A program made the position numbers and the translations under genes. Source: a virus (Duplodnaviria; Caudoviricetes). From it: a stretch of 37,783 nt of DNA. The stretch is taken from positions 1-37,783 of the IMG/VR virus record IMGVR_UViG_3300048851_000198, one strand, 5' to 3'. Shown here piece by piece: positions 1-37,783 of this stretch (positions are counted from its first letter, which is position 1; every line of letters begins with the position of its first letter). A model generated the notes under the pieces. It ran no database searches and was not told where the DNA came from. It worked only from the letters and a program-made list of their open reading frames with translations.

Positions 1-270
1 ATGGAAATTATCGCTTTCGAGGAAGAAGCCTTTTACAAAATGATTGCGGCAGTTGTTGCGCGAATCAAGGCGGAGCATGGCGTCAAGGAGGACAAATGGA
101 TTAGCGGTGCCGAGGCTATGCAGAAACTCCGCATTACCAGTCCTACGACCTTGCAGAAGCTTCGAGACACTGGAGCGATCCGTTTTAGCCAGCCTGAAAA
201 GAAGATGATCCTGTATGATTCCGACAGCATAAACGCATACCTGGAGAAACACGCTAAAAACCCTTTCTGA
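1..270 (+). CDS. Helix-turn-helix excisionase-like protein (HTH_17 type) of Bacteroidota integrative elements
   Basis: KWISGAEAMQKLRITSPTTLQKLRDTGAIRFSQPEKKMILYD matches the recognisable Bacteroidota Xis-like HTH pattern. Confidence 0.85.
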   Translation: MEIIAFEEEAFYKMIAAVVARIKAEHGVKEDKWISGAEAMQKLRITSPTTLQKLRDTGAIRFSQPEKKMILYDSDSINAYLEKHAKNPF

Positions 271-920
271 TGGGCGACGATGAGTATAAGGGCGAAGATG
301 AGCGGATCGAGGCCGCCATGCACCAGCAGGAGTTAGATCGGCGCGGCCCTATGACTGAATCCGAATACAAACTTTACTACGAGAAGATGGCAATAGATGA
401 AATGAATGATCGTCACGGAAAGGAATTGCGTGAGTTCTACGAAAGGAAAGCCGAAGAAAAGGCCCGATTACAGAAGGAGAATGCCAATGAAGAACAGCTT
501 TCCAAGCATGAGGAAGATTGGTCAAAGCAATATTCAGAGCTTGTTAACAATACTTACAACGAAGAAAAAGCAAGAACTGACGCCGAAGCACAGGAAAGAT
601 CGCAGCGGAAGGCCGTTGAAGATGTTATTCGGGAAGGTAAGGAAAATTCGGACTGGGTTGAAAACGGCGCTGATGAAAATGACCTTGAGACACAGCAAAT
701 GTCAGAGGATGACAGGCTTTATAAACAGGGCGTAGAGCATGGGTACTGGATATTCAAAGAGTCCCCTGGCACTTTTCAGGAATACCGCAAAGACCTGAAC
801 GAAAAAGCCGCCCCTATGTCTTACAGGGATGGGATGGACGAAGGCAGTAAACAGGCCACAAAAGAGAAATTTATTGAAAAATGGAAAAGCCCTGGAAAAG
901 ACAAAGATCACGAGCGATGA
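270..920 (+). CDS. Acidic hypothetical protein resembling Bacteroidota mobile-element proteins found downstream of the Xis-like gene
   Basis: TGATG coupling to the HTH gene; C-terminal YKQGVEHGY...YRDGMDEG...KDKDHER pattern. Confidence 0.6.
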   Translation: MGDDEYKGEDERIEAAMHQQELDRRGPMTESEYKLYYEKMAIDEMNDRHGKELREFYERKAEEKARLQKENANEEQLSKHEEDWSKQYSELVNNTYNEEKARTDAEAQERSQRKAVEDVIREGKENSDWVENGADENDLETQQMSEDDRLYKQGVEHGYWIFKESPGTFQEYRKDLNEKAAPMSYRDGMDEGSKQATKEKFIEKWKSPGKDKDHER

Positions 921-1267
921 AGGCCCATAATAATCCTGTGGCCCTCGTAATCGTCCCCTGATACGGCATAAAGCTTTTCCGCTAACTCCACAGCATCAAA
1001 TATACCTTTGCTTGCCAGATAGACCGTTTCGCCGCTTCTGGACGTATGCAATTCGCTGTGGTGGACGTGACAAAGTGGAATTGCGTTTTTGTCGTCAGCT
1101 TTCATGCCCATGCCTCGGACCACGTTTCTCATAAGGTGGTGAGCTATGATCGTCTCATCTTCTATACAGCAACAGGCGCACGGCAATGTTGCGAGCCAGC
1201 GCAGGTGAGGCTTATCGGTCATGCGGTTGCTGGACTTTTTACGCGGTCCTTGCTTCGGAAACATCAT
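908..1267 (-). CDS. DUF968/HNH-like Zn-binding phage nuclease
   Basis: HLRWLATLPCACC...AHH...GMGMKADD..AIPLCHVHHSELH. Confidence 0.85.
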   Translation of the reverse strand: MMFPKQGPRKKSSNRMTDKPHLRWLATLPCACCCIEDETIIAHHLMRNVVRGMGMKADDKNAIPLCHVHHSELHTSRSGETVYLASKGIFDAVELAEKLYAVSGDDYEGHRIIMGLHRS

Positions 1268-1647
1268 CTCTCAAACCCATACAGTTCAGGCAATGGTAGC
1301 TTAATCCCTGCCATTCCCGCAAGCACATGAGTATGGTCGATCAGCTTCCCGTAGTCCTTTATGCTCAATTCCTCCGACGAAATATCACGCTCGTAAACGA
1401 TCCCTTTTCTATCGGTGAAGCTCTTAGTCCCGAATACCTGACGCTTGATAATCGTTTTCAGTTCTATCAAGCTGTAACCAGTACCCTCGCAAAGCACACT
1501 GATGCATTTATGCCAGTATCGTCTCTGCGGAGGGGTCTTAGTCTTTGGCTTTATAACAACTTCCCATTTGTCCAGTTCAAGGCCAGCAACCGCAACAAGG
1601 CAATTAGCCTTTACCTGATCTGAAATGATTAGGAAGGTATGGTCCAT
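1264..1647 (-). CDS. NinB/YbcN-like recombination protein
   Basis: VVIKPKTKTPPQRRYWH...SSEELSIKDYGKLID pattern; lies in the recombination operon. Confidence 0.65.
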   Translation of the reverse strand: MDHTFLIISDQVKANCLVAVAGLELDKWEVVIKPKTKTPPQRRYWHKCISVLCEGTGYSLIELKTIIKRQVFGTKSFTDRKGIVYERDISSEELSIKDYGKLIDHTHVLAGMAGIKLPLPELYGFER

Positions 1648-2135
1648 TATCGAATTACAAGAAAGCTATCGCCACGCTTGAAGGACGCATAATTTAATTC
1701 TTTGCCAGCTTCAAGGTCTTTCTTAAGCGCGGCAGTGTCGGCGGCATATTCTACCTTCCTGTATTGTTCAGGCAATTCCTCCGCAGAGCAGTTCAGCTTT
1801 ACGCTTAAGCGCCCTTGCTGGATGCTGGCGTTACCTGCTACCGTCTTAATGGGTTTTCCCGCCATTTGAACAAGCGTGTAAATACCAGCTTTATAATATT
1901 CTTCCTGCTTATCGAACGCCCTTGCCCGTTCCGTATAAATTCTGGCAAGCGATGTCACGGCTTCGGCATTGGCTTTGTTTTCACGGGATTTACGAATGAA
2001 GTAATCGGCCCAATCTTCAAGAGACCTATCAATTGCGGTAAAGGCTTCCTCATCGTCCTCAAATATCTCCCCAAACTGATCCCCAATTTTATCGTGCCGA
2101 TTACGGATTGCGTCAAGTAATTCTTGGTATCTCAT
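1647..2135 (-). CDS. Siphovirus Gp157 family protein
   Basis: Coiled-coil N-terminus; C-terminal ELPEQY..ADTAALKKDLEAG..ASF...LVIR. Confidence 0.8.
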   Translation of the reverse strand: MRYQELLDAIRNRHDKIGDQFGEIFEDDEEAFTAIDRSLEDWADYFIRKSRENKANAEAVTSLARIYTERARAFDKQEEYYKAGIYTLVQMAGKPIKTVAGNASIQQGRLSVKLNCSAEELPEQYRKVEYAADTAALKKDLEAGKELNYASFKRGDSFLVIR

Positions 2136-2144
2136 AACGTTCCC

Positions 2145-3074
2145 CTAAAACATTCTGTCTATGATTTCGACCAGATAGGCTGTATTTACCTTTTCAGGGT
2201 CTTTGTCTTTGAGTTTGGCGACCACTTCAACAAAATAAGCGACATCCACTCCAGTCAACTGATCTTCTAAAACCTTATGATCTGTTAAGTCCAGTTCAGA
2301 TATTTGCATCACCATTTTAAGAATTTGTCCGGCATTGATCTGCCAGCCCCGTCTAATAAACTTGCGCATACGAAAAACAGAACACAAAGGATATTTGCTT
2401 CCGACATAGCGTAGCTCTTTAGCGAGGATAGCTTCTAGGGCTTCCTGATGAAGCGTTACCTTGTTCTCCCAAGAAGTCCAGTAATTCGTGCAATGCACAT
2501 AATCATAGTTCTTGTGAATTTCCTCCGCATCACCATAAAAGCGCAAAATAATTTGAACCTGATGGGAAAGGGTAATTGCATTAGTGGACATGAAAACAGG
2601 ACGGTATTTTTCGCCATCGTCAATCTTCAAAGCGTCCAATTCGGTTTGCTGATAGGCATCCTCTATAGCACCTGGATCTTGCATTACTTCGCTTACATAG
2701 CCAGACGCATCACCGCCACCTTCAACGTATTCATAGTCTTTGTTAGTGCCTTCCTCGCTTGCGATACCTGCACTTTTGATTACGACTTTAATGCGCTCGC
2801 CCTCTTCTTGCACAGTAATGCCGCACTCGATACCCTTTTTGTTTTTTGGCTTAAAACGCTCCACATAATACTTGGCAACTGCTGAAGTAGTTTCTCGGTT
2901 TCGGAAATAAAGATCATAGTCGTTTACATCTTCATTCAAAAGCATAGAGACAATTGAACCGCCAGTAATAATAGTGTTCTTTTCTACCAACTGTCTGACG
3001 TTTTCATCTTCAATGGAACTTACAAAGTCATTAAACTTTTTAGACATAATAGCATTGATTGTTTTACGTTTCAT
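2145..3074 (-). CDS. Phage nucleotidyltransferase (Pol-beta superfamily)
   Basis: ITGGSIVSMLLNEDVNDYDLYF (hG[GS]..DxD), YDYVHC, RMRKFIRRGW. Confidence 0.8.
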   Translation of the reverse strand: MKRKTINAIMSKKFNDFVSSIEDENVRQLVEKNTIITGGSIVSMLLNEDVNDYDLYFRNRETTSAVAKYYVERFKPKNKKGIECGITVQEEGERIKVVIKSAGIASEEGTNKDYEYVEGGGDASGYVSEVMQDPGAIEDAYQQTELDALKIDDGEKYRPVFMSTNAITLSHQVQIILRFYGDAEEIHKNYDYVHCTNYWTSWENKVTLHQEALEAILAKELRYVGSKYPLCSVFRMRKFIRRGWQINAGQILKMVMQISELDLTDHKVLEDQLTGVDVAYFVEVVAKLKDKDPEKVNTAYLVEIIDRMF

Positions 3075-3406
3075 TATGCCACCCCGATAACTGATAACAG
3101 CGGAACAAGCAGAGCAATTACCCAGCTAAACGGGATTTTATCATCCAAATCTTCTGCAAAGCTCGTGGCACCACTAGGCGCTTGTGCATCGCGGCGGCGT
3201 CCTTCGGCATTGCTTACAGGCTTTGCATTCTTCGGCTTCACCGATCCGCGAAACGCTGGGCCATTGCCATCGTTAGCCCACATGTTGATCCAGTATTCCT
3301 TACCGTCAACGTTAAGCGTACCGTTAAAGTCGGCGTGAGTTTGCTCTGTCTTGCGGTCATTAGTGAATACGGCGAATTTGTTGGTGTTGTCGTATGTTTT
3401 GGTCAT
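3074..3406 (-). CDS. Single-stranded DNA-binding protein-like, with hydrophobic C-terminal extension
   Basis: FTNDRK...ADFNGTLNVDGKEYWINMW core; acidic DDKIPF motif; near the annealing protein gene. Confidence 0.7.
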   Translation of the reverse strand: MTKTYDNTNKFAVFTNDRKTEQTHADFNGTLNVDGKEYWINMWANDGNGPAFRGSVKPKNAKPVSNAEGRRRDAQAPSGATSFAEDLDDKIPFSWVIALLVPLLSVIGVA

Positions 3407-3409
3407 GGA

Positions 3410-3526
3410 TTATCCCACACTTTCTTGCGCTAGGTTCAAATGAGCCTCAATGAAGCCGATAGATTGCTCCAGGGTGTAATGTCCATCCCGAAAAGCAGTT
3501 AGAATTGTCTCAATAGACGGTATCAT
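3410..3526 (-). CDS. Small hypothetical protein (38 aa, MIPSIETILTAFRDG...), not in the ORF track
   Basis: TAATG coupling with the upstream gene, SD AGGAG, fills the operon gap. Confidence 0.55.
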   Translation of the reverse strand: MIPSIETILTAFRDGHYTLEQSIGFIEAHLNLAQESVG

Positions 3527-4209
3527 TATTTATTCTCCTGTTGTGTTAATTGTGCTTTACGTTCGTTATATGCCTTAGTCAAACCCACTCTTGCAGGCTC
3601 GTCACCTTTAGCAAGCGTCCATGCGGCGGCAAACAGGTCTTGCAGTTCTTTTAAGTCCTTGGCGGCAGGAATGGCTAGGCGGTAGAAGTTATATTCTTCG
3701 TTATTCACAAGATCGACTTTCTCTGGCTTGGGTTGAGCGGGAACAGGCGCGGTGTATTTATCACCATCAAATTGACCCATATGCACGTCAGCAGACATAC
3801 CGATATGTTTCATGGCATTCATAAGAGCGTCCGTAAACGCCTTCTTAAAGGCTTCATCGTCAGAGCGCAGGCCAGCAGATTGCTTTACGATAACGAAGTC
3901 GCCGCCAACTCCATAAACAAGTTCAGAGCGTGGCTCATCCAAAATACTATCAGAAGGTACGCCCGTCGCATGCCACAAGCCCACTGTGCAATAAACTAAC
4001 AACTGGCCCTCAGTACCGCTAACAGTTTGGTATTCTGGCTTGGTATATCCCCAGCCGATACCACAAGGCCCGAAAAGTTCAGTCATTTTTTGGATAGCAT
4101 ACATCGGTTTAATCGCATCGCCCGAAAACCCGCCAGCCCGTTTAAACTTCTTTGTGTGCTTTGGATCAGTAACGCCAAGCACCTTCCATACTTTCATGTT
4201 ATCGGTCAT
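3526..4209 (-). CDS. Rad52/Sak-like single-strand annealing protein
   Basis: TDPKHTK...MTELFGPCGIGWG...DDEAFKKAFTDAL...IGMSADVHMG. Confidence 0.8.
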   Translation of the reverse strand: MTDNMKVWKVLGVTDPKHTKKFKRAGGFSGDAIKPMYAIQKMTELFGPCGIGWGYTKPEYQTVSGTEGQLLVYCTVGLWHATGVPSDSILDEPRSELVYGVGGDFVIVKQSAGLRSDDEAFKKAFTDALMNAMKHIGMSADVHMGQFDGDKYTAPVPAQPKPEKVDLVNNEEYNFYRLAIPAAKDLKELQDLFAAAWTLAKGDEPARVGLTKAYNERKAQLTQQENK

Positions 4210-4403
4210 TGCGCCCTCCGCGCTGGTCTGTAAGAGTTGTTTTCGAGTACGATAGCACCCTCAGCAAGCAGTAATTCAACTGCATCAGGTACGAGTTCCG
4301 GCAAGCCAGACTTTGCGATCATTTGTTCCATCGTAAGTGTTGGGTAATGCAACACAAGGCGGTCTACTATACCGTTAGCGCAAGCCTGTAGGGGAGTGGT
4401 CAT
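4206..4403 (-). CDS. Small hypothetical protein, possibly winged-helix
   Basis: ATGA overlaps on both sides within the operon. Confidence 0.6.
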   Translation of the reverse strand: MTTPLQACANGIVDRLVLHYPTLTMEQMIAKSGLPELVPDAVELLLAEGAIVLENNSYRPARRAQ

Positions 4404-4717
4404 TTGCCACCTGCCTTTTCAAGAGCGTCGACGATTATTTTAGAGATACCCCAAAAATCAGAAGCTATTCGCGTGTCGCCATCTTCTAATACTTCCTTTG
4501 CTTTCTCCAACGCAGCAACAAGATCATCATGGCTATTACAGGCTCGAATAATAAACTTTGCATCTTCTTCACGCTCAATGCCTGGAGTAGAGTAATAATT
4601 AGTTGAGCAGATACATGTATCACCGGAATAAATAACCCAATCCTCATTCTCATAGTCATTCATATGCTCAGAATATTCGGTGCGCCAAGGCGTAGGTGTG
4701 TGTTTCGTATCGGTCAT
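4400..4717 (-). CDS. Phage hypothetical protein (HTPxPW...A..I..A.N..D.L family); start reassigned to 4717
   Basis: MTDTKHTPTPW...DAKFIIRACNSHDDLVAALE motif; TAATG coupling. Confidence 0.75.
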   Translation of the reverse strand: MTDTKHTPTPWRTEYSEHMNDYENEDWVIYSGDTCICSTNYYSTPGIEREEDAKFIIRACNSHDDLVAALEKAKEVLEDGDTRIASDFWGISKIIVDALEKAGGK

Positions 4718-4848
4718 TATTGCACCCCGAAAGCAGCGCCAGCCATAGGAATAAGCCAGCATACACCATAAGCCATGATAAGCAGCCATACGGCCATGGC
4801 AAAGCATTCCAGGAATGATTCTTCGGTATCAGATTGATTATTACGCAT
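4717..4848 (-). CDS. Small membrane protein (43 aa), first gene of the leftward operon
   Basis: SD GGAGG (4856-4860) upstream of ATG 4848; hydrophobic segment. Confidence 0.6.
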   Translation of the reverse strand: MRNNQSDTEESFLECFAMAVWLLIMAYGVCWLIPMAGAAFGVQ

Positions 4849-4883
4849 AGGAAATCCTCCGTTATGTGTGTTTGACAAGTACC

Positions 4884-4953
4884 ACCATAGCGACTGTATC
4901 AGGCAAGTCAAGAAAAATATTCATTGACTTTGAAAATAATTCATGCGAATAGT
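4884..4953. promoter_or_regulatory. Back-to-back divergent sigma70-type early promoters
   Basis: Minus strand: TTGACT(4911-4906)-N16-TATGGT. Plus strand: TTGACT(4924-4929)-N18-AATAGT. Confidence 0.7.
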
Positions 4954-4957
4954 TAAG

Positions 4958-5049
4958 CAGAGGTGAAAACCTTCGATGACGTTTCCCTCCCTTTCCGTCA
5001 TCAGGGGCGGTTGAGCGTGTGTTTGACGACTATGCTCCCGCCCTTTTTT
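4958..5049 (+). ncRNA. Putative three-hairpin sRNA/leader with a CCCUCCC loop, ending in an intrinsic terminator
   Basis: AGGT-GAAA-ACCT; GATGACG-(TTTCCCTCCCTTTC)-CGTCATC; GGGCGG..GAGC/GCTC.CCGCCC followed by T6. Confidence 0.6.
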
Positions 5050-5563: not shown

Positions 5564-6706
5564 TTATTCATTGACTTGCTCAACGGATATAAGAACATAT
5601 TTTGTTTTAGGAGTTTCTGAAACCTTCATCTCCTCAATGATTTCAGTGCAAACCAAACGATATGTAATGTTCTGAACGGTGATCCCTTCTAGGCTAACAT
5701 TTGGCCCACTTGTTCCGCTGTATTCTTTTTTATCCTCTGTATTATATATGCGCCAAGTTCCATGATTTGTATCGACCTGCTCAAAATAGCCTAAAAACTC
5801 CCTGACTTCCTCAGCTAATTCTTCTGCTGAGGCAAGAATACTGTTAATACGCTGCGCTTTGCTTTTATCAATATATGTGACATGAACTTCACGCTGATTC
5901 GGCGCATACCATTTGTGCTTGACCGTAACGTTAAGCGCAATTATTTTCAAAAGCAGATTCTTTAAACTGCTTATCGTGTGACCTTTCACTGATCTAAGGA
6001 CTTCGAGTATCTCTTGATCGTTTAGGTCATTACTTAACAATTCATCGAATTTCTTAAGCGCAATTTCGATTATTGAGCTTCCGTAAATGTCTACCTCGGC
6101 AGTTGAAAACAGGTGTATATTAAACGAGCCTTTGGAAGAAGCAAATGCCCGAAGCTTATAGTTGCTTGGATCGGAATAAGCAACCTTTTTAGGACTTTTT
6201 GATTGTGCTAACTTTTTCTTATAGCTGTTCTCAAGGGTCATCTGATAATATTTCAGAATGTCACCTAAATTTTCAGCAAACACACTATTGCTATCGTCTT
6301 CTTCTGAAACGGCGATGTGAACAATAGCATTATTCCTTTCTATTGATTCCTGAATAATTTGTTTATCGTCCGACTTTTTTGAAAGGAAGAACCCAGCATC
6401 AGGTAAATAGTCGAGTGGCAGTTCATTCTCTGTCAATAGTGTTGCTAAAACATCGTCTCCCGTATAGTCGAAGGTATAATAGTCCTTTATTTCTGGCTCG
6501 GAAAATATTCCCCTAAGGTCAACCCGTCCATTTATAAATCCGGCTAGTCGCTTGATGGATATTGGAGTAGATAGATAAATTGTTTCGGTCTCGTTAGCTT
6601 CAACCAGCAATGAAATGAATTTTGAACCTACCGCATTGTCGCACACCATGATCTGGGGAAGATCATAATAGAGCAAAATTTGCGATATGGTTAAGTACTG
6701 TTTCAT
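5564..6706 (-). CDS. DUF6575-like protein, second gene of an antisense two-gene cassette
   Basis: N-terminal LLYYDLPQI...RLAGFINGRVDLRGIF...YLPDAGFFL pattern; AT-rich; directly abuts the upstream gene. Confidence 0.65.
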   Translation of the reverse strand: MKQYLTISQILLYYDLPQIMVCDNAVGSKFISLLVEANETETIYLSTPISIKRLAGFINGRVDLRGIFSEPEIKDYYTFDYTGDDVLATLLTENELPLDYLPDAGFFLSKKSDDKQIIQESIERNNAIVHIAVSEEDDSNSVFAENLGDILKYYQMTLENSYKKKLAQSKSPKKVAYSDPSNYKLRAFASSKGSFNIHLFSTAEVDIYGSSIIEIALKKFDELLSNDLNDQEILEVLRSVKGHTISSLKNLLLKIIALNVTVKHKWYAPNQREVHVTYIDKSKAQRINSILASAEELAEEVREFLGYFEQVDTNHGTWRIYNTEDKKEYSGTSGPNVSLEGITVQNITYRLVCTEIIEEMKVSETPKTKYVLISVEQVNE

Positions 6707-7063
6707 TTATACGGTTATCATAAACTCAGCGCTTCTCCACCAGGAGTAATGGTTCGGTCCTGATGTTTTCTGGATTAAACCATCACCACTTTTCAAGTTG
6801 AGTTGCAAGATGAAATTTGTCTTTTTCTTGAAAGCGGGTAGCTTTGTTACATTCAATGTCGCTTCGTAATCATCATAAACGGACAAAGAACATGCTCGAC
6901 ACTCATCAACAGGATAGATTTTATCGGGATTTATCTTGCGGTGAGAATGTAGATCAGAGTCAGTTGCCGGATCAGATGCAGCTATTCTAAATACTGTATA
7001 GCCGTCAGTATCCACAGCTTCCTTTGGAGGACATTGATCTGGAAGCGGCTCGAACCAATTCAT
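6707..7063 (-). CDS. Small protein with possible ADP-ribosyltransferase/RES-like fold
   Basis: LPDQCPP...VFR...CSLSVY...HYSWW spacing resembles the ART R / S-x-S core. Confidence 0.5.
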   Translation of the reverse strand: MNWFEPLPDQCPPKEAVDTDGYTVFRIAASDPATDSDLHSHRKINPDKIYPVDECRACSLSVYDDYEATLNVTKLPAFKKKTNFILQLNLKSGDGLIQKTSGPNHYSWWRSAEFMITV

Positions 7064-7145: not shown

Positions 7146-7173
7146 TTGACATGCCATATCTGTCGTGCATAAT
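7146..7173 (+). promoter_or_regulatory. Sigma70-type promoter for the replication operon
   Basis: TTGACA-N16-CATAAT. Confidence 0.7.
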
Positions 7174-7180
7174 ACAATCA

Positions 7181-7240
7181 CGTAGGGCTTAGTTCGGAGT
7201 TGCTCCCGAATGACAGCCCCCTTGACCGGGTTGCCCTACG
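7181..7240 (+). ncRNA. C4-like cloverleaf antisense RNA, copy 1
   Basis: P1 CGTAGGGC/GCCCTACG; P2 TTCGG..CCGAA; P3 loop CCTTGACC complementary to GGTCAAG at 7261 and 7272. Confidence 0.75.
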
Positions 7241-7284
7241 TTCTCATTATGAGTTTAATCGGTCAAGAGTTGGTCAAGGTAAAA

Positions 7285-8109
7285 ATGGATTGGTTCCCGT
7301 GGTATCCCGAGCGGTACAAGAATAAGACGCTTCACCTTACGGCAGAACAGGATGGCATATATCGCCGCCTGATAGATCATTACATGGAAACGCGACTACC
7401 GCTTCCTGACAATGACTTTGCCCTTGCACGTATAGCGGGTGTGGATAATGCCTGCTTCAAGCAAGCTTCAAGCATCCTTAGAGCATTTTTCAAGCAGTCT
7501 GAAACTGGGATTTTGAACCATATTACCTGCGATGAGCTACTGGACGAGCAGGACCAGCTTGCCAAGTTCAGGACAGAACGCGCTCGCAAAGGCGCTGAGG
7601 CTAGGCACAAAAAGACTAATGAAATCAATAAAAACTCTGCTTCGAGCAAACAAGAAGCATTGCTTAAACCTGCTACAATAACAGTTAACAATAACAATAA
7701 CAAAATATCTAAAGATATAGATGCGCCTTTGGGCATAGCCGAAAACGTTTGGCAGGATTTTATTATCCACCGAAAAGCAAAAAAGGCCCCCCTTACGAAA
7801 ACAGTGGTCGATATCCTTTTACGGGAAGCGGCTAAGGCATCCATTACGCCAGCGGAAGCATTAGAATATACACTGATGCGCGGCTGGCAAAACTTTAACG
7901 CAACTTGGTTTGCAGAAGGAAAAAGAAATGTTAACAACAACGACCAATCAAAACTTACAGGACACGCAGCTTTGGGGGAAATCAACCGAAGAGCACTTGA
8001 ACGCGTTGAGCAAGATAGATTATCGGGGAAAGCTGCCCGCACTGCCCTCGACGATTACGACTTTGGAGAAACAGTGCCTCAAATATCTGGGGACGACCCT
8101 TTCCGCTAA
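7285..8109 (+). CDS. DUF1376/YdaU-family replication initiator (start reassigned to 7285)
   Basis: MDWFPWYPERY...TLHLTAEQDGIYRRLIDHY; C-terminal WQDFIIHRKAKKAPLT...RGWQNF. Confidence 0.85.
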   Translation: MDWFPWYPERYKNKTLHLTAEQDGIYRRLIDHYMETRLPLPDNDFALARIAGVDNACFKQASSILRAFFKQSETGILNHITCDELLDEQDQLAKFRTERARKGAEARHKKTNEINKNSASSKQEALLKPATITVNNNNNKISKDIDAPLGIAENVWQDFIIHRKAKKAPLTKTVVDILLREAAKASITPAEALEYTLMRGWQNFNATWFAEGKRNVNNNDQSKLTGHAALGEINRRALERVEQDRLSGKAARTALDDYDFGETVPQISGDDPFR

Positions 8110-8674: not shown

Positions 8675-8736
8675 AGCCAAGGAATACGAATACATCGACA
8701 CTTACGAAAACCAACAGATTAACCGAGGAGAGTAAA

Positions 8737-8931
8737 ATGACAAATAATGCCAGATCAAAGATTATCGCACAGGGCATAGAGAACTTGAGGCAGTATGGGT
8801 ATCATCACGTTGACGAGCAGAACATTTTAACGGACGAAATCTACAGTAAGTTCTTTAAGTCCATGCTGGAAAGCAATCTCGGCCGAGGCCATGACGAGCT
8901 TATCAATTCGATAATTACGGATATTAAGTAA
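8737..8931 (+). CDS. Phage hypothetical protein
   Basis: SD GAGGAG before ATG 8737. Confidence 0.65.
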   Translation: MTNNARSKIIAQGIENLRQYGYHHVDEQNILTDEIYSKFFKSMLESNLGRGHDELINSIITDIK

Positions 8932-8960
8932 TTGATTTATTAACACTAGGGAGATATAAG

Positions 8961-9666: not shown

Positions 9667-9672
9667 CACCCA

Positions 9673-11370: not shown

Positions 11371-11375
11371 AATAT

Positions 11376-11406
11376 CAAATATAACTGTTATCAGGACAAA
11401 ATACAA
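11376..11406 (-). promoter_or_regulatory. Bacteroidota-type primary-sigma promoter
   Basis: TTG(11406-11404)-N20-TATATTTG(11383-11376). Confidence 0.75.
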
Positions 11407-22819: not shown

Positions 22820-22830
22820 GGAGTTAAACG

Positions 22831-29352: not shown

Positions 29353-29353
29353 A

Positions 29354-30118: not shown

Positions 30119-31242
30119 CGATTAAAGTATTAGACAGGGCTTTCGAGACAACTACAACTACCGGAACGGGAGTAATCACGCTTGCGGGTGCGCAACAGGG
30201 TTTTGTATCTTTTGCCACGGCTGGTAACGGCGCAAAAGTGCTTTATCAGATTAATGATGGTGATACCACGGGGCTTGTTCAAAACTGGGAAATCGGTATA
30301 GGAACGGTAACAACAGGCACACCAAATACCCTTACGCGTTCAACCGTTTTAAAATCAAGCAATAATAACTCACCTGTAAACTTTGGTTCAGGTGTCAAAA
30401 ATATCATTGGTTCTATAGCTGGACTAACCTTAGCTACACGCGATGAAAACCTGAATTTTGTTGAGGGATTTGGAATTGGGGGTGGTACGGCAAATGCTCA
30501 CACTGTTACCGTGCCAGTTACGCCATTGGGTTATTCCGACGGGATGGAGATTAATTATTTCGCAACAGTAGCTAATACTGGAGCAATGACCATAAACGTG
30601 AATGGCCTGGGCGTTAAATCGGCGAAGCTAAGCGGTGCAGACGTTCCCGCTGGATATATCGGTGTTGGGTCACTTGTTTCTGGACGGTATCGCACGTCCT
30701 CAGGCTTTATCGAGTTAAGCGGTGGAGCTACCATTGGTCAGGGCGCAAAGGCAGATAGTGCAATACAACCAGCGACGGGCCAGATACTGCGACGGGTAGT
30801 GATAGAGGATGCAACGGTTGCTGGCGCTGGAACGGCTATGGCAATTAGCTCCGCCCCCTCAAATACCGCTGGAGATTTACTTATTACATTGAACGTTCCT
30901 GCTAGAACACGGGCTGGTAGCAAAATGTATCTAGAGATGTCCATGTTTTGTGGCAATGCCGTCACAGGTGCGGCAGGTGTTGGGGCGGTAGTCGCGTTTT
31001 TTTTAAACTCGACAGCAACGGCTTTTGCCATGGCAGTAGAGTATAACAGCTTCACCAACGGATCAGGGTCAGTTTATCTGATTAAAAAAATGGAAGTTCC
31101 AATTGTGAGTGATACCGGAAACACCGTTCCTGTAAGGGTTGGCAGAAATGGCGGTGCATCATGGTATATAAATCGGACATTTTCTGATGCGGTTATCTTT
31201 GGTGCCAAAACAGTATTCACATTTACGGAGGTGGCGGCATGA
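30115..31242 (+). CDS. Tail fibre/receptor-binding protein
   Basis: DRAFETTTTTGTG.ITL.GA..GF..F...WEIGIGT N-terminus; GGTANA...NTGA.TINVNGLG module; beta-rich C-terminus. Confidence 0.75.
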   Translation: MTIKVLDRAFETTTTTGTGVITLAGAQQGFVSFATAGNGAKVLYQINDGDTTGLVQNWEIGIGTVTTGTPNTLTRSTVLKSSNNNSPVNFGSGVKNIIGSIAGLTLATRDENLNFVEGFGIGGGTANAHTVTVPVTPLGYSDGMEINYFATVANTGAMTINVNGLGVKSAKLSGADVPAGYIGVGSLVSGRYRTSSGFIELSGGATIGQGAKADSAIQPATGQILRRVVIEDATVAGAGTAMAISSAPSNTAGDLLITLNVPARTRAGSKMYLEMSMFCGNAVTGAAGVGAVVAFFLNSTATAFAMAVEYNSFTNGSGSVYLIKKMEVPIVSDTGNTVPVRVGRNGGASWYINRTFSDAVIFGAKTVFTFTEVAA

Positions 31243-31517
31243 GGTGGTTTGCTGACATGACGGGTCAATTCATTCTTGGCTCGGAAGATAATATGCCAGA
31301 AGGTGACGAAGGTATTGACTGGCAGGAGACAACGGTTCCGCTTGGTGGTGATGTTTTGTGGGATGGCATCCAGTGGGTCGAATTACCCCAACAGGAAACA
31401 CCAGAACCGACGCCTATTAACGTAATCCCCTATATCGGCACCAACACGACCATGAAGAAAAAGAAATGGGAAATCGTGATGACCGATAATGGCGTGGGAT
31501 TCAGGGAGAAGCCATGA
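31239..31517 (+). CDS. Small tail-associated protein (fibre chaperone-like)
   Basis: ATGA overlaps; WDG.QW motif. Confidence 0.55.
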   Translation: MRWFADMTGQFILGSEDNMPEGDEGIDWQETTVPLGGDVLWDGIQWVELPQQETPEPTPINVIPYIGTNTTMKKKKWEIVMTDNGVGFREKP

Positions 31518-32062
31518 CAGCTAAACTAGAGGCCACAACGGAAAAGAACACAAACGACATCCAGGCGCTTGCCTTACAGGTAACCCGTGTCGTAACTATT
31601 GTTGAGAACTCAGAAAAGCGCCACGAAGGTGACGTAAATATGTGGCGTGAGGCCATAGCGGGAATAAGCAAACTAAATGAGAGTGTATCGAAAACGCTCT
31701 TACTGGAGAAAGACGTTGCAGCAGCAAAAGAGACGATGGCAGAATTAAAAAGCGACATTCGGGTGGTACGTCATGATGTAGGCAACCTTCAAAATGCACA
31801 GAATGCAATCCCCATACATCAGGCGGCAATTGCGAAACTTGAGGCAAAGATAATTGCTCTGGAAGTCATACGGGATAAGATTTCAGGCGGTGCTATGGCC
31901 CTTGGATTTGGGAGTAAGGTTCTCTGGACTGTGTTTGGTGGTGCCATCATTGCTTTAGGCGGCTACCTGATTGATACCTATATGGACCGAAACGTTACGA
32001 CTATATCCGCACCTTCACAAATTGAGATAACTGCTCCGGTGGAAAATGACAACCCGCAATAG
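31514..32062 (+). CDS. Coiled-coil membrane protein, holin/antiholin candidate
   Basis: One C-proximal TM segment; directly upstream of the endolysin. Confidence 0.5.
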   Translation: MTAKLEATTEKNTNDIQALALQVTRVVTIVENSEKRHEGDVNMWREAIAGISKLNESVSKTLLLEKDVAAAKETMAELKSDIRVVRHDVGNLQNAQNAIPIHQAAIAKLEAKIIALEVIRDKISGGAMALGFGSKVLWTVFGGAIIALGGYLIDTYMDRNVTTISAPSQIEITAPVENDNPQ

Positions 32063-32567
32063 CTTTTCGACTACTAGCAAGGTCGCTGGAGGATTAATCG
32101 GCGCGGCAATGCTTATAGCCGTTCCCTTCATTGTGGAGAAAGAGGGCGAGAGCCTTAAGGCTTATCGTGATGTGGCTGGCGTATGGACTATATGCCATGG
32201 CGAAACGCTTGGCGTGAAAAAGGGTGACGTAAAGACCAAAGAAGCCTGCCGACAAATGACCCAGACGAGAACGGGACAGTTTATGGCTAACGTTGCAAAG
32301 GAAATCAAAGTGACCGTATCACCGGAAACCCTCGCGGCGCATACAAGCTTTGCGTATAATATCGGGGTAAACGGCTATCGCACATCACAGGCGCTTAAGC
32401 TCACAAATCAGAATAAAGTACGGTCCGGTTGCGCTGCAATGATGAACTGGTATACCGCGGGCGGAAAAGACTGTCGCGTTAAAGCAAATAATTGCTATGG
32501 TCTGATCACGCGCCGTATGTCAGAGCGTGATCTGTGTTTGAAAGGCTTGTCAAATGGGGGCTTATAA
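32046..32567 (+). CDS. GH24 lysozyme, SAR endolysin
   Basis: N-terminal Gly/Ala-rich SAR segment; E-x8-D-x5-T triad EGESLKAYRDVAGVWT; SFAYNIG; GLITRR..E. Confidence 0.93.
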   Translation: MTTRNSFSTTSKVAGGLIGAAMLIAVPFIVEKEGESLKAYRDVAGVWTICHGETLGVKKGDVKTKEACRQMTQTRTGQFMANVAKEIKVTVSPETLAAHTSFAYNIGVNGYRTSQALKLTNQNKVRSGCAAMMNWYTAGGKDCRVKANNCYGLITRRMSERDLCLKGLSNGGL

Positions 32568-32784
32568 ATGGGATGCAATATTTATTGGTGTTGTCGTAGC
32601 CGTGCTGGGCGCGTTTGGGTTCGGGTATGGCTGGGCTAATAAAAGCTGTGAGATCGAGAAGAAGGATGATAAGATCAAGGTAATTGAAAAGGTCATAACC
32701 ATTAGGGAAAAGCAGAATGAGATACGCAATAATCGTCCTAATGCCTCTGGTGTTGCTAAACGCTTGCGCGCGGGAACGTTTTGA
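32554..32784 (+). CDS. i-spanin (Rz-like)
   Basis: N-terminal TM plus short periplasmic helix after the endolysin. Confidence 0.65.
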   Translation: MGAYKWDAIFIGVVVAVLGAFGFGYGWANKSCEIEKKDDKIKVIEKVITIREKQNEIRNNRPNASGVAKRLRAGTF

Positions 32785-32932
32785 TTACCTGACGGTGGAC
32801 GTTGTTAATTACGACCAAAAGACTATGGACAAAGCGGCCACTGAAATTGAAGGTGGGTCATGCCCTGTCCTAAGTGACGTTTTTATGCCTGACTACAGCG
32901 TTATGCGAGACCAGGCCAGAGCCGCGAAGTGA
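32717..32932 (+). CDS. o-spanin lipoprotein (Rz1-like)
   Basis: Signal peptide with lipobox LNAC; overlaps the i-spanin in another frame. Confidence 0.7.
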   Translation: MRYAIIVLMPLVLLNACARERFDYLTVDVVNYDQKTMDKAATEIEGGSCPVLSDVFMPDYSVMRDQARAAK

Positions 32933-33213
32933 AATACATACCCAGTAAGATATTCTTTGCCGAGCCGCGCTGGAAAGCCTTGCGACAACGTGCGCTGCAA
33001 TACTGGGGCAGAAAGTGCATGAAGGGCGGTAACTGTGCCGGACCTATTCAGGTGGACCATGTTTTGAGCCGTAGTACCCGTCCAGATTTGCAGTGGTCGT
33101 TTAATAATCTCCAGCCGCTATGCTACCGACATAATCATGAAAAGGGACGCAAGGGCAAGCGGGATTACAGGCCGTTACTTAAACGCTGGAAATTCCGATT
33201 GCTTGGATATTAG
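32929..33213 (+). CDS. HNH endonuclease
   Basis: W..LR......C...IQVDHV...P.L....NNLQPLC..HN..KG. Confidence 0.88.
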   Translation: MKYIPSKIFFAEPRWKALRQRALQYWGRKCMKGGNCAGPIQVDHVLSRSTRPDLQWSFNNLQPLCYRHNHEKGRKGKRDYRPLLKRWKFRLLGY

Positions 33214-33269
33214 TTTTTAGTTTGAATCCTAGAAATCAATTACTTAACTTTAATGTAATCATAAAGGCC

Positions 33270-33668
33270 ATGAGTTATAACAGTAATTTCGAAAGAGGAA
33301 AAGACGGTCGGTCTAAAGTTCGTAATGTAAATGATGGAGTTGGAGGGCTTACATCGGACCTTGGTTATATAGCTGGACAGCAAGCTCGGGAGAGGGAACA
33401 ACGGCAAAGACAACAGGAAAGTGATACCAGACGGGACTGGGAAGAAACAGCCTTCCGTAGCAACCTTGAACATGAAAGATATATGGCGGGAGCTGGATAT
33501 ATCAAGAAGTGGGGTAAATGGTATGATCCGGTAACTGGTGAGCTAGTCTTTAAAAAGCCAGTAGTTGCACCACTTCCGGAACCCCTTAATACTATTATAA
33601 ATATCTTTTTAGGTATCCTGCTTATAGGTATTTTAATTGCCTTAGGCTTATTCATAGCTGCGAATTAG
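33270..33668 (+). CDS. Membrane-anchored cargo protein (start reassigned to 33270)
   Basis: C-terminal TM; TTTG(33221)-N20-TAACTTTA(33245) upstream. Confidence 0.65.
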   Translation: MSYNSNFERGKDGRSKVRNVNDGVGGLTSDLGYIAGQQAREREQRQRQQESDTRRDWEETAFRSNLEHERYMAGAGYIKKWGKWYDPVTGELVFKKPVVAPLPEPLNTIINIFLGILLIGILIALGLFIAAN

Positions 33669-33682: not shown

Positions 33683-34180
33683 TTACTTAGGCGGTGGAAG
33701 CTTGGCCTTTAGCTGCTGTTGTAATTTATTTATAGTTGCCTGGTGTTCTTTTACCTGCTGCTTAAGCTCGATGTTTTGAAGGTCCGAACTGTATTTTCCC
33801 CATGCAAAACAAATCGGGCCTATAATAGCAAGAACGCCAAGAAGTAGCGTGACTAATGAACTATTGTCAAGACGCATGAGAAAGTTTGTTTTGGGTTCTT
33901 TGTAAAGAGGCCTGGTCTTTAGCAGTTCAATGCAACCATCAAGAAACTGGGACACCTCAATAGTGTTCTTCTTAATTTGATTTTCTTCATCCCACTTATC
34001 TGCAAAAAGCAAGTCACTAAAGTCAAATCCCCTTATATATTTAAACTGTTCCGACTCGGCTCCAAAATAGTCCTTGATAAGGCTTTTGGTTATTGAAATC
34101 CAAGCATCATTGCGATTATTTTTGTTTGCGAGTTTATCTTTTTGTTCTATTAGTGAGGCGATCGCGCGTTTAGAAGTCAT
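33683..34180 (-). CDS. Membrane/coiled-coil cargo protein (start reassigned to 34180)
   Basis: Helical N-domain, TM LVTLLLGVLAIIGPICFAWG, coiled-coil tail; TTG-N20-TATCTTTA-ggc-ATG. Confidence 0.7.
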   Translation of the reverse strand: MTSKRAIASLIEQKDKLANKNNRNDAWISITKSLIKDYFGAESEQFKYIRGFDFSDLLFADKWDEENQIKKNTIEVSQFLDGCIELLKTRPLYKEPKTNFLMRLDNSSLVTLLLGVLAIIGPICFAWGKYSSDLQNIELKQQVKEHQATINKLQQQLKAKLPPPK

Positions 34181-34323
34181 GCCTAAAGATAAGGATTTTG
34201 CTCTGCGCCGCCAAGGCGACAAAGGGGGTTTTCGGTGGAGTGCGGTTGCGGGTCTGTCTGTCACAACAGGATATTTGAACATATATTTTTTAGTTGGGTA
34301 GGCCTAATCTATATTTGGGTATC

Positions 34324-34413
34324 ATGATTTCAATGCAGACGATTGTAGACGTGTCAACGATAGTTGGAGCGCTTGCAGGTTTGCTTTCTCTTTATCAGAA
34401 CAGGAGAAAGTAG
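34324..34413 (+). CDS. 29-aa hydrophobic peptide MISMQTIVDVSTIVGALAGLLSLYQNRRK, not in the ORF track
   Basis: Perfect TATATTTG at 34310-34317, 6 nt before ATG; terminator downstream. Confidence 0.55.
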   Translation: MISMQTIVDVSTIVGALAGLLSLYQNRRK

Positions 34414-34535: not shown

Positions 34536-34564
34536 TTGACGTTTGGTAATGCTTCCGATATAGT
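34536..34564 (+). promoter_or_regulatory. Strong sigma70-type early promoter, copy 1
   Basis: TTGACG-N17-TATAGT with AT-rich upstream sequence. Confidence 0.8.
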
Positions 34565-34590
34565 AACTATATCAACAAGGGAGATACCAA

Positions 34591-34815
34591 ATGGCTAAAT
34601 TAACTTACTGGATTGCAAAGCGCACAAACGATAGCAACTGTTATTCATTGCGCGCAAAGACTAAAAAAGAATGTCAAGAACAAATAGATAAAGCAATCGC
34701 CGACGGACTGGACAAAGACGACTTCGACGCTCCAAAAAAAGTGTCCATAGAATACCGCGATGCGTTTGATTTGATGCTGGAGTGTTCAACCGAAGGCAGA
34801 GGGTGGTGGGAATGA
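34591..34815 (+). CDS. Phage early hypothetical protein
   Basis: SD GGGAG; LTYW.A....S.CYS.RAKT.KE...Y.DAFDL. Confidence 0.75.
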   Translation: MAKLTYWIAKRTNDSNCYSLRAKTKKECQEQIDKAIADGLDKDDFDAPKKVSIEYRDAFDLMLECSTEGRGWWE

Positions 34816-35042
34816 CCGACCTGAAAACAATCCGCGCTGATCTAGGCGTATCACATAAGGACATTGGAGACGGTACTGGCGTAAAGAAGCAGTATGTCTA
34901 TGAGTTGGAAATCAGGGACAAGCCTTTGCCGCCGAAGTTTAAGGGCAATCTATTAGCCTGGCTGAAACTGGAACTTGCAGGGCTTAAAGAAAAGCGAAAA
35001 ATAATCAATAAAATAATTAGAAAACTTGAAGATAATGCTTGA
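34812..35042 (+). CDS. XRE/Cro-like HTH protein (start 34812)
   Basis: LKTIRADLGVSHKDIGDGTGVKKQYVYELE. Confidence 0.75.
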   Translation: MTDLKTIRADLGVSHKDIGDGTGVKKQYVYELEIRDKPLPPKFKGNLLAWLKLELAGLKEKRKIINKIIRKLEDNA

Positions 35043-35067
35043 CTGTTGGTAATGCTTATGGCATAGT
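35039..35067 (+). promoter_or_regulatory. Sigma70-type early promoter, copy 2
   Basis: TTGACT-N17-CATAGT; spacer shares TTGGTAATGCTT with copy 1. Confidence 0.75.
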
Positions 35068-35095
35068 AATGAAGTCAAACACAGAGGAGATACCA

Positions 35096-35230
35096 ATGTT
35101 CACCAAAGCAGAATTTAAAGAAGTATACGCCGACTTCCAAACTAAAGAGGGCCGCGATGAAGCAATTCAGTGGTTTCTATTTCACTGGGAACACGTTGGT
35201 GACGCCCTTCGCATAGCAGCGGAGGAATAA
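35096..35230 (+). CDS. Small early protein (start 35096)
   Basis: SD GAGGAG. Confidence 0.65.
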   Translation: MFTKAEFKEVYADFQTKEGRDEAIQWFLFHWEHVGDALRIAAEE

Positions 35231-35232
35231 CC

Positions 35233-35439
35233 ATGTATCATTTTAACAGACTGTCCCTAATGGCAATGCAAGCGAAAACCGCATATAACCGAGGCGAAGT
35301 AGGCAAAGCCAAGGCATTATTGACGGAGATTGAACAGCTTGCGGCCCATGGCTGGAACGAGATTACAGACGAGCAAGATCGTGTTATTGACATGGAAGAT
35401 ATACTGCGAACCCCTGCAAACCAGAACCCGAAAGGATAA
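35233..35439 (+). CDS. Small early protein
   Basis: SD GGAGG. Confidence 0.65.
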   Translation: MYHFNRLSLMAMQAKTAYNRGEVGKAKALLTEIEQLAAHGWNEITDEQDRVIDMEDILRTPANQNPKG

Positions 35440-35691
35440 GTGATGACCGAAAACGAATGGCAACCAATTGAAACAGCCCCATTTGGCGAAGTATTAGAAG
35501 TTAAGAACGATCAGATGGACGAGCCGTGTCTAGCAAGTAGAGGTTATGTAAGCAGAGGAATGGTTAATCCTAATTTTGATTTATTCACATCTATTTACAC
35601 GCCTGACCCATTTTTTCCTACTCCAGCAGGCCGACTTGTTTGCCCGAAGGTTTGGCGAAAAGCACCGGAAAGCGAAAGCCATGACCTGTAA
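35440..35691 (+). CDS. Phage protein with WQPIETAP motif (DUF551-like)
   Basis: EWQPIETAP...P..WR. Confidence 0.75.
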   Translation: MMTENEWQPIETAPFGEVLEVKNDQMDEPCLASRGYVSRGMVNPNFDLFTSIYTPDPFFPTPAGRLVCPKVWRKAPESESHDL

Positions 35692-35735
35692 CTGCGGAGA
35701 ACACTGGACACACTTATGCGAATGCGAGGATTACG

Positions 35736-35960
35736 ATGACTAATATTGAGGTTTCAGAACTAGAAGTGAGGTTTGGTATACTATATCCCTCTTTAGAGAT
35801 TCAACTAAAGGGATATGGCTTGGATAAAGCGTTTACAATAAAATGTGAGTCTCAACGAAAAGCGATAAACTTACTTGTGTTCGGTGGTCTGATAAGCTCA
35901 TCTCAGGCTGATAAATGTTTTTCTAGGCTGTTTAAAAATATCATGAAAGCGATAAAATGA
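35736..35960 (+). CDS. Small early protein
   Basis: SD GAGGA. Confidence 0.65.
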   Translation: MTNIEVSELEVRFGILYPSLEIQLKGYGLDKAFTIKCESQRKAINLLVFGGLISSSQADKCFSRLFKNIMKAIK

Positions 35961-36265
35961 CATTGGAAATTAAAGCTGGCGTTGCTTATAGAACGCGTGG
36001 TGGTGATAGGGTTGTGTTAAGAAAGATTAGGAATGAAGCTTATTTGGAAAGCGATAAATGGGATTATGGGCAAGATGGAAAGGTTTTCGGTAATGATGCT
36101 CATCGTGATGACATCGTTGCCCTATGGGACGAACCCAAAGAACCTAAACCGCTTCCCACCATATACGACTGCATAGCATTACTTGAACACGAGAAAGACT
36201 GCTTGACCGCGCTAGCAAAGCTAAGAACGCTGGCACTACAACACGAAAGAGGAATACATGACTAA
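35957..36265 (+). CDS. Phage hypothetical protein
   Basis: G..YRTRGG...DIVALW motif; ATGA overlap. Confidence 0.7.
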   Translation: MTLEIKAGVAYRTRGGDRVVLRKIRNEAYLESDKWDYGQDGKVFGNDAHRDDIVALWDEPKEPKPLPTIYDCIALLEHEKDCLTALAKLRTLALQHERGIHD

Positions 36266-36407
36266 GAGAATATCTATGAATGACCGCAGACGTAAAGCGG
36301 TTTGCGCGGCAATTGATTTCATTACCACGACCTTGGAATCAGCGACGGAGGAAAGCCAAAACCCCTACTTTGAAACCATAGACGTTTTGGAGGGAATGTT
36401 GAAATGA
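36258..36407 (+). CDS. Small hypothetical protein (49 aa), not in the ORF track
   Basis: SD GAGGA; open frame filling the gap. Confidence 0.5.
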   Translation: MTKRISMNDRRRKAVCAAIDFITTTLESATEESQNPYFETIDVLEGMLK

Positions 36408-36449
36408 AAAAGCTGGACGCTGTTAAATTACCTGTAGTAGGAGGGATCA

Positions 36450-37058
36450 ATGACTGAATTACCTGACGTTATTTATGCTGGCATATACCATGACGATGTA
36501 CCGCTAAAAGAATGGCGTGAAACAAAAATGACAGGTTCGACCAAATACATCCGTGCTGACGCAATCCCTCACGTTTCGATAGACATAGACGCTATTCATG
36601 CGAAACCGAAGGATGGGGAAGCGTGTCTTGATTGCGGTAGTGAAATGAGGCTGGTTTGTTCTGGTCTGGAAAAGATGGTTAAAAAGGAAGATGCTGGAAA
36701 ATGTGTTGTCGGAACAAAGTATGAGCCTCGGGGCCGTGCATTATCCCAGCCATTGCCATCGCCTGACCCTGTAAAGCAACTACTGCGCGAGGCTTTGGCC
36801 GAGCTGGTAGAATTACAGTCTTCTGCCCTAGCCGTTAAGATGCGCTCCGAATGTATCACAGACACATGGTGCGATGCCGACGTAAAAATCTTGTACGAAC
36901 GTGTCGGATATGGGGCGGTGATGGATAGCGCAGCCCGTCAGTGGTTTATCAAAGACGGCAAAGGCGGATCACACACTACCTATCATTGTTATTCCGTTGT
37001 GAAACAGGTCACTGAACGGGCACAAGAAGCACTAGCAGCATCGGAGGTCCAACCGTGA
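36450..37058 (+). CDS. Mosaic phage hypothetical protein
   Basis: SD AGGAGG; P..IY...YIRAD motif. Confidence 0.7.
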   Translation: MTELPDVIYAGIYHDDVPLKEWRETKMTGSTKYIRADAIPHVSIDIDAIHAKPKDGEACLDCGSEMRLVCSGLEKMVKKEDAGKCVVGTKYEPRGRALSQPLPSPDPVKQLLREALAELVELQSSALAVKMRSECITDTWCDADVKILYERVGYGAVMDSAARQWFIKDGKGGSHTTYHCYSVVKQVTERAQEALAASEVQP

Positions 37059-37339
37059 CACAATTAGAAAACACCGAACTGTTACCTGTAAAACTCGTAA
37101 ATCATGATGGTATAGGCTTATATATTCACGGCATCATGCCTGACGGTTCAGAAAACATGGTTATGGATTGCCGCATCGAATTGCGCGTCCGTGGCTGGGG
37201 TGGCTTAACAGGCAAGGGCGGTGGTCGTGGCCTAGACGATAACACCGCAATGGATATTCAAAAGATGTGGGCCGATGAAATTTGCAAACGGTATAATTCA
37301 TACGCCGCATCGGCCAAGGGTGACAAGTGCATAAAATAA
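37055..37339 (+). CDS. Phage hypothetical protein
   Basis: SD GGAGG; RVRGWG.LTG.GG..LD...A..IQ motif. Confidence 0.7.
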   Translation: MTQLENTELLPVKLVNHDGIGLYIHGIMPDGSENMVMDCRIELRVRGWGGLTGKGGGRGLDDNTAMDIQKMWADEICKRYNSYAASAKGDKCIK

Positions 37340-37548
37340 TCCTCGCCATATCGCTAACATCGTTCGTCTGGTTCTTCGCTGGCTATGCGTATCTGTATGG
37401 GTTTGTGCGTTCTGTTGATGCTGGCATAGAGCGGGATTATATTTCTATCAAGGCTGCGCGACTTGTGCTGGCTGATTACTACCTGTTACCGAAAAAGACC
37501 ACGGATTGCACTATGCTAGTGTGTTACCGCAACAAGGGGGATGAATGA
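37327..37548 (+). CDS. Small membrane protein
   Basis: N-terminal hydrophobic segment; operon context. Confidence 0.55.
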   Translation: MHKIILAISLTSFVWFFAGYAYLYGFVRSVDAGIERDYISIKAARLVLADYYLLPKKTTDCTMLVCYRNKGDE

Positions 37549-37783
37549 TGAATATAAATTATGTTTTGGGCTGGGTTTTATGGCTGTGTTTTCTTGGGGC
37601 GGCTGAAATAAAGCTTATGTGGAGCTTTGATAAGAAGCCGTTTCACAAAAAGGGGTGGTTATGATGAAAGAAGGTACGGGATCGGTTATTTATAGCGCAA
37701 CTTCGCCTTATGATGTTAGAGCAAGGAATTGTTGGGATGCTATGCGTGATGCTTTGCTAAAAGAAGTAAACGAGACGAAATAA

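Follow-up and report, generated by a model that had tools for sequence, protein, structure and literature searches.

The stretch of DNA analysed here in full (the window, 37,783 nucleotides, IMG/VR record IMGVR_UViG_3300048851_000198) is the provirus record of a tailed phage, and the question which it raises is how one phage genome comes to carry the expression signals of two bacterial phyla and in which cells these signals are read. The answer which we regard as fairly probable is a phage with two signal sets that is silent in Cytophagales, is delivered by conjugation, and forms virions only in an alphaproteobacterium. The anatomy of the element, the Bacteroidota residence of its relatives, the partitioning of the signals, and purifying selection are established; lytic growth in a proteobacterium would be the best inference from the signals. 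A first-pass annotation had already proposed that one genome is written for two transcription systems and could sit in the chromosome of a Bacteroidota cell, and this proposal is strongly supported by Dyadobacter relatives and by translation, promoter, and GANTC signals with same-genus controls.

A search with the large terminase subunit (TerL) identified three proviruses (G001-G003) with the same layout as the window and different antisense cargo, and alignment of a tail protein against a genome collection placed 3/3 loci in Dyadobacter (D. bucti QTA69, D. jiangsuensis DSM 29057, and Dyadobacter sp. CY356). Related prophages, for which the first-pass annotation had advised a search in Bacteroidota isolates, are present in named Dyadobacter genomes, where Bacteroidota housekeeping genes flank them. 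Dyadobacter sp. CY356 carries, on a 1.29-Mb contig, an element of approximately 44 kb between 45-bp repeats of the 3' end of tRNA-Met, composed in order of an integrase (Arm-DNA-bind_5, Phage_int_SAM_5), Xis, ArdC, RadC, the phage genes, a primase-like gene, a coupling protein (PF02534), a MobC-like gene, and a relaxase (PF03432); genes outside it are rpsO, pnp, rpoD, and a holA-like gene (names read from the sequences). The tRNA-Met repeats measure 45 bp in G008, 46 bp in G032, and 43 bp in G006, in the last over two contigs, and both attachment (att) repeats lie on one contig in G008 and G032. The relatives carry a Bacteroidota-type tyrosine integrase together with Xis, while the window itself has Xis only; the window Xis is 64% identical to that of the CY356 element and 55-66% identical to genes adjoining or paired with the Bacteroidota-type tyrosine integrase in relatives, and 6/6 IMG/VR relatives found for it are elements of this kind. 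A non-coding block resembling an origin of transfer (oriT) is conserved before MobC in the relatives, with CATCTTG in 4/6, and we take this CATCTTG block to resemble a MOBP nick site. The relatives thus have the tyrosine integrase and Xis, the direct repeats at a tRNA 3' end, and the relaxase with an oriT-like block which define an integrative mobilisable element (IME), and TraM was detected in 5/5 host genomes tested. It is this mobilisation module of the relatives, outside the window, that would supply a route between the phyla.

Screening of 62 Dyadobacter genomes identified six intact-looking elements (G006, G007, G008, G032, G042, and G046), and named GapR matches add two Hymenobacter; of the copies located for which the host has a name, all but one are in Bacteroidota. 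The scaffold shared by the family carries four head-tail types: the siphovirus type of the window, the myovirus of G032, the P22-like podovirus of G046, and a further unrelated set (G1093, open reading frames [ORFs] only). In G032 (C12, 840789-889930) the shared integrase, early genes, and mobilisation end enclose a contractile-tail module. G046 and G042 have ParA and RepA_C adjoining the phage genes on contigs which showed no integrase; the 41-kb contig G046:C17, which combines the P22-like podovirus module with GapR, ArdC, ParA, RepA_C, relaxase, and coupling protein and has GANTC at 0.05-0.08 of expected, is a plasmid-type member of the family. G1093 is a linear 41-kb record with the fourth head type in which element genes extend upstream of the integrase, a layout which would fit an excised or unintegrated form or a virion form. 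Patchy occurrence (6/62), att boundaries, and a replication initiator distinguish these elements from gene transfer agents. In wider Bacteroidota samples the family is rare: tail alignment found it in 0/400 Cytophagales genomes (centre genome aside) and gave one weak distant match in 400 genomes of the phylum, and GapR was present in 3/301 genomes of a sample drawn at the rank of the taxonomic family. It should be noted that tail-alignment and TerL searches miss other head-tail types, G032 and G046 having been found via relaxase and GapR. A 17-kb Spirosoma 'plasmid' (NZ_CP056033.1), the sequence of which starts within a portal homolog, holds a partial copy with terminase, GapR, ArdC, and ParB, and possibly represents a larger element assembled only in part.

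The partitioning of signals is seen in translation. Bacteroidota ribosomes fail to recognise Shine-Dalgarno (SD) sequences, and a strong SD is found in 0.7% of Cytophagia genes (PMC7797042). Scoring as SD-like any pairing of -3.5 kcal or better, we recovered the split which had been claimed for the window, with an SD before 46/53 core genes and 1/9 cargo or left-end genes, these starts having been picked by hand and not blind to SD; an automatic gene caller found it before 16/17 genes of the structural region. With the same automatic caller 104/143 structural genes of nine siphovirus-type elements were SD-led compared to 24/124 in ten HK97-type native Dyadobacter prophages (Fisher p 1e-18), and a second comparison gave 92/118 versus 8/42 host genes, the 'native' and 'host' control loci being stretches of 11-20 kb which possibly mix prophage and host DNA. 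Flavobacterium phage 11b had an SD before 3/42 genes (automatic caller). Among the transfer and integration genes of the family an SD precedes integrase in 0/4, Xis in 0/4, coupling protein in 0/7, the primase-like gene in 1/7, and ParA/RepA in 0/4, while relaxase is SD-led in 3/7 and ArdC in 8/8. ArdC (e.g., L086:3048) and GapR mostly have a TTG start after a strong SD. The ArdC of plasmid R388 is required in recipients and not in donors (PMC7213743).

Promoters divide in the same way. The Bacteroidota sigma factor recognises TTTG/TANNTTTG and not TTGACA/TATAAT (PMC6847099). All seven TTGAC promoters listed by the first-pass annotation are present, each with 16-18 nt between TTGAC and a -10-like hexamer (4911 on the minus strand, which had been given as 4906, and 4924, 7146, 16422, 17303, 34536, and 35039). 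Over the whole window a -10-like hexamer follows 9/92 TTGAC sites versus 5.2 expected (P 0.07, not significant), and in intergenic DNA 6/15 versus 1.2 expected (P 6e-4). Raw sigma70 counts across whole loci were weak (p 0.04) before restriction to intergenic DNA, where TTGAC with a -10 hexamer was found at 44/135 sites in family elements versus 5/86 in native Dyadobacter prophages. At 36 antisense cassette heads, listed by hand, a sigma70-type restart site diverging from the head toward the core was present in 14/36 and on the other strand in 1/36. The claim that the cassettes carry a signal set of their own stood for 6/8, in which a TAnnTTT(G/A) box lies 11-25 nt before the ATG, and failed for the two whose starts are at 7063 and 34282, where no such box lies within 200 nt; only three of the window boxes end in strict TTTG, and the count covers the eight cassettes, since the window begins at the Xis ATG and a left-end box would lie outside. 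In the family the strict Bacteroidota box was found before 8/36 cassette heads versus 4/180 core-strand genes. Boxes at -11 to -14 would yield nearly leaderless mRNAs, because the Bacteroidota box starts 12 nt before the transcription start (PMC6847099).

The core also bears a compositional mark. CcrM and an at least two-fold depletion of GANTC typify most Alphaproteobacteria (PMC3973325), and the observed/expected ratio of GANTC was 0.13-0.35 in phage genes of the family, whereas native prophages had 0.70-0.97 and host flanks 0.82-0.90. Of 256 gapped tetramers compared, none was as strongly depleted as GANTC (0.32). The ratio is low too in integrase-Xis DNA (0.41) and in the mobilisation modules (0.35), as expected if these also pass through a second host, and less so in the window cargo (0.78). 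Core genes were intact in 8/8 elements tested, structural genes included, and apparent stops in one tail gene and one ArdC were alignment edges. In most top pairs dN/dS was 0.03-0.08 (0.016-0.14 overall) with dS >1, so that the expression signals of the core have outlived synonymous saturation. GapR, which among 14 control genomes occurred in Caulobacter only, has a dN/dS of 0.02-0.04.

These observations suggest the following sequence of events. In a Bacteroidota cell the primary sigma would not read the TTGAC promoters, so that the core would stay silent and need no repressor, and the integration module and cargo, some of it defence-like, would be expressed. A search for a CI-type repressor (Peptidase_S24) was negative in the window and four relatives (5/5 records), although other repressor families could escape it; the only repressor-type genes seen were short and Cro-like, with a helix-turn-helix (HTH). 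The back-to-back sigma70-type promoters of the divergent early operons (4870..4960, TTGAC at 4911 minus and 4924 plus) have no repressor gene between them. Xis and integrase would excise the element, and relaxase and coupling protein would pass it to a resident Bacteroidota conjugation pore. In an alphaproteobacterial recipient SD-led ArdC would shield the incoming strand and the unrepressed core would fire immediately, much as in zygotic induction. Virions or a second conjugation would then bring the DNA back to a Cytophagales cell, where the integrase would be read again; this is the weakest step. More tentatively, the two-phylum cycle could be obligate and serve as a weapon, with Cytophagales injecting an inexpressible, repressor-free phage into an alphaproteobacterial competitor, predator, or epibiont, whose lysis would release virions that re-arm Cytophagales, a strategy which several unrelated head-tail types would have adopted; we see this as possible rather than probable.

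A number of points weigh against this reading. No alphaproteobacterial genome was among the three loci of the genome collection and no copy was found in any, nor did GapR neighbours name such a host. There was likewise no sign of a virion, circular record, spacer, or transcript; the G046 contig has no terminal overlap and G1093 no terminal repeat which would indicate a circle. The closest named tail tube (71%, protein P0012) is on a 227-kb contig of a metagenome-assembled genome (MAG) labelled Janthinobacterium lividum, which is either an error of binning or a genuine copy in a proteobacterium. For the window, integrase, mobilisation genes, and host are inferred through relatives, and ArdC was not found within it. 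The strict Bacteroidota box precedes just 8/36 cassette heads and 3/25 module genes, and CtrA boxes were absent from the DNA tested. GGNCC (0.46) and CCNGG (0.58) are likewise low, and restriction may thus contribute to the avoidance of GANTC. Low dN/dS between lineages can predate capture, and three decayed remnants among the 62 Dyadobacter genomes (G013, G023, and G060) indicate that some copies are dead ends. Finally, relaxase and coupling protein best match proteobacterial plasmids in PLSDB (29-39%, in a collection poor in Bacteroidota plasmids), a likeness with which either direction of transfer would agree. In the remnants (G013:C6, G023:C27, and G060:C1) portal, TerL, or GapR is frameshifted and homologs of the antisense cargo are still recognisable.

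The remnants lead to the alternative that survives best, although we judge it unlikely, in which Bacteroidota mobilisable elements took up alphaproteobacterial phage genomes several times and carried them as silent passengers until decay. The four distinct head-tail modules would fit such repeated capture, as would phage-free elements with a related relaxase and coupling protein, which do occur in Dyadobacter. Passengers would hardly explain a gene order and tRNA-Met site that are constant across lineages with saturated synonymous sites, core genes intact in every element tested, integrase and mobilisation DNA which are themselves GANTC-poor, or cargo placed within the core together with restart promoters. 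Slightly less probable again is a single Bacteroidota host, reached by an old jump from Alphaproteobacteria, in which the cycle is now completed in Cytophagales through an alternative sigma or without using the old signals. The named hosts, nearly all Bacteroidota, speak for it; translation can proceed without an SD, and it has been proposed that ribosomes depleted of bS21 read SD (PMC7797042). However, SD, TTGAC promoters, and GANTC avoidance are lacking in the native prophages of Dyadobacter, unused signals should not survive dS >1, GapR would not be expected to be kept at its low dN/dS, and no phage sigma factor or bS21 was found above cut-off in five relatives.

A two-host route that is reversed or split seems a little more doubtful still. 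Here an alphaproteobacterial lytic host, perhaps a predator or epibiont touching Cytophagales cells, would exchange DNA through a secretion system of its own, and the role of the relaxase module would be to spread the element among Bacteroidota. The proteobacterial likeness of relaxase and coupling protein agrees with this, and the only pointer to a predator is a Micavibrio-labelled MAG with a related tail tube (one protein, 39% identity). The GC content of the core, 45-49%, also speaks for such a route, being low for well-known soil alphaproteobacteria. Coupling protein and primase-like genes without SD alongside an SD-led ArdC fit instead a Bacteroidota donor and an SD-reading recipient, and similar modules exist phage-free in Dyadobacter. 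An assembly chimera is very improbable: the window is metagenomic and is spanned by a single run, possibly the one from which it came, and yet the same architecture recurs in several genomes of isolates, in two of which (G008 and G032) a single contig carries the att repeats of both ends.

Silence in Cytophagales followed by conjugative delivery would set this family apart from the systems it most resembles. The Bacteroidota IMEs NBU1, NBU2, and Tn4555 (PMC5704250) are similar in their tyrosine integrase at a tRNA 3' end, MobA/VirD2-type relaxase, and dependence on a helper pore; to these the family adds a coupling protein of its own and an entire phage genome bearing the signals of another phylum. 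The available part of that source describes prophages beside IMEs as tandem neighbours only and not fused as they are here. Phage-plasmids such as P1 and N15 (PMC7969092; PMC12282955) unite phage and plasmid genes in one replicon, as do G046 and G042, but are lysogenic and lytic in one host, whereas the window lineage integrates, has a relaxase, and is made of halves which use different expression systems. The signature of alphaproteobacterial phages (GapR, SD, sigma70 promoters, and GANTC avoidance) is present in full, and the layout of the early operon, like these four features, is common to the GapR-bearing temperate siphoviruses of Alphaproteobacteria; unlike these, the family resides in Cytophagales and no CI-type repressor or proteobacterial integrase was found in it. 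No coupling protein was present in five further GapR phages that were tested. By distal tail protein the closest phages in culture include Azospirillum phage Cd and Caulobacter phage Sansa, and by tail tube Xanthomonas and Pseudomonas phages. Compared with lambda-like temperate phages the packaging, head, tail, and lysis genes are all there, but no CI-type repressor was found between the divergent promoters, and the lysogenic and lytic genes do not carry signals suited to one host. In the zygotic induction of lambda a prophage conjugated into a new cell fires, as nothing represses it; here donor silence would stem from sigma incompatibility, the relaxase is the element's own, and donor and recipient would belong to different phyla. 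No description of such a two-phylum life cycle or of such elements was found in the literature searched, which excluded most subscription papers and all supplements; as far as searched, the parts (IME, phage-plasmid, and zygotic induction) are each known and their combination across two phyla is apparently new. Hosts of phages across phyla have mostly been argued from indirect links, and the presence of these elements in cultured named strains (e.g., D. jiangsuensis DSM 29057) makes the question testable by mating. If the reading is true, it would mean lysogeny without a repressor and a route for DNA in soil between Bacteroidota and Alphaproteobacteria, and a 'provirus in genome X' would give the wrong lytic host.

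As to the window itself, 8/10 proteins looked up map to a single contig of 998,542 bp. The junctions are unbroken in a contig of 48,489 bp from soil run X1, which spans the whole window with 0 differences and 0 joints and overhangs it by 164 bp at the left and approximately 10.5 kb at the right end; X1 is possibly not independent, being perhaps the window's own source, and run X2, matching in scattered pieces of 150-340 bp only, says nothing on junctions. The right end had no match in the metagenome collection searched. A profile scan of 69 ORFs identified a complete siphovirus set of packaging, head, tail, and lysis genes, a DUF1376 replication initiator, GapR, and the Xis-like HTH_17 protein, and no integrase or plasmid replication or partition gene; the identities earlier assigned to GapR (PF10073), HTH_17, and DUF6169 were all confirmed. 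The Xis-like gene of the Bacteroidota integration module (1..270, plus strand, PF12728) is coupled to an SD-less ORF (270..920, plus) which terminates in KDKDHER, much as module genes do in relatives, and has a weak homolog at the equivalent place in G002. The SD-led leftward early operon (908..4807, minus) encodes HNH/DUF968, NinB-like, Gp157, SSB, and recombination genes. Rightward on the plus strand follow a sigma70-type promoter with the DUF1376 initiator (start 7285), small early genes, and a MazG-like gene (7146..10447), GapR (11869..12111, PF10073, E 5e-22), the small and large terminase subunits and portal (12533..15499), the intact siphovirus head, connector, and tail genes (18004..31517), SD-led and GANTC-poor, a lysis region with phage lysozyme, two spanin-like ORFs (so called from their sequence only), and HNH (31514..33213), and small SD-led genes with sigma70-type promoters at 34536 and 35039 (34536..37783). 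Genes like these last are followed in relatives by the primase-like gene, coupling protein, MobC-like gene, relaxase, and tRNA-Met att site.

The eight cassettes comprise six with long ORFs and two short ORFs (12184-12327 minus and 34324-34413 plus). That their cargo is of Bacteroidota type held for the signals and for DUF6169, and did not hold for DUF6575, a cross-phylum family, or for two cargo genes without named relatives. DUF6575 belongs to the antisense SD-less pair at 5564..7063 (minus), which weakly resembles the PD-T4-10 A and B anti-phage proteins (E ~3e-6 each). At 10782..11383 (minus) a 50-aa ORF accompanies the DUF6169 protein, with a TATATTTG box 13 nt before the ATG; DUF6169 relatives occur in 14/62 Dyadobacter genomes and, on plasmids, in Spirosoma and Runella only. 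The 47-aa antisense ORF (within 12184..12339, minus) has a TAAATTTA box 12 nt before its ATG, and the antisense HNH cargo (15508..16413, minus) has TATTTTTG at 12 nt and beside it the restart promoter at 16422, directed back into the core. Antisense membrane-protein cargo (16687..17291, minus) has a TATATTTA box 11 nt before the ATG and the restart promoter 17303; it has a homolog which is antisense cargo at a different site in G001, and 16687-17280 gave unnamed matches only. A cargo ORF without SD (33245..33668, plus) starts from the ATG at 33270, with a TAACTTTA box 25 nt upstream of it. The interval 33683..34413 holds antisense cargo (33683-34282, minus), with a weak PDC-S35 match and no plasmid match, and a divergent 29-aa ORF (34324-34413, plus) with a TATATTTG box 14 nt upstream. 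Two gaps in the window, 10447-10782 (335 nt) and 12111-12533 (422 nt), contain hairpin-like runs and short ORFs only.

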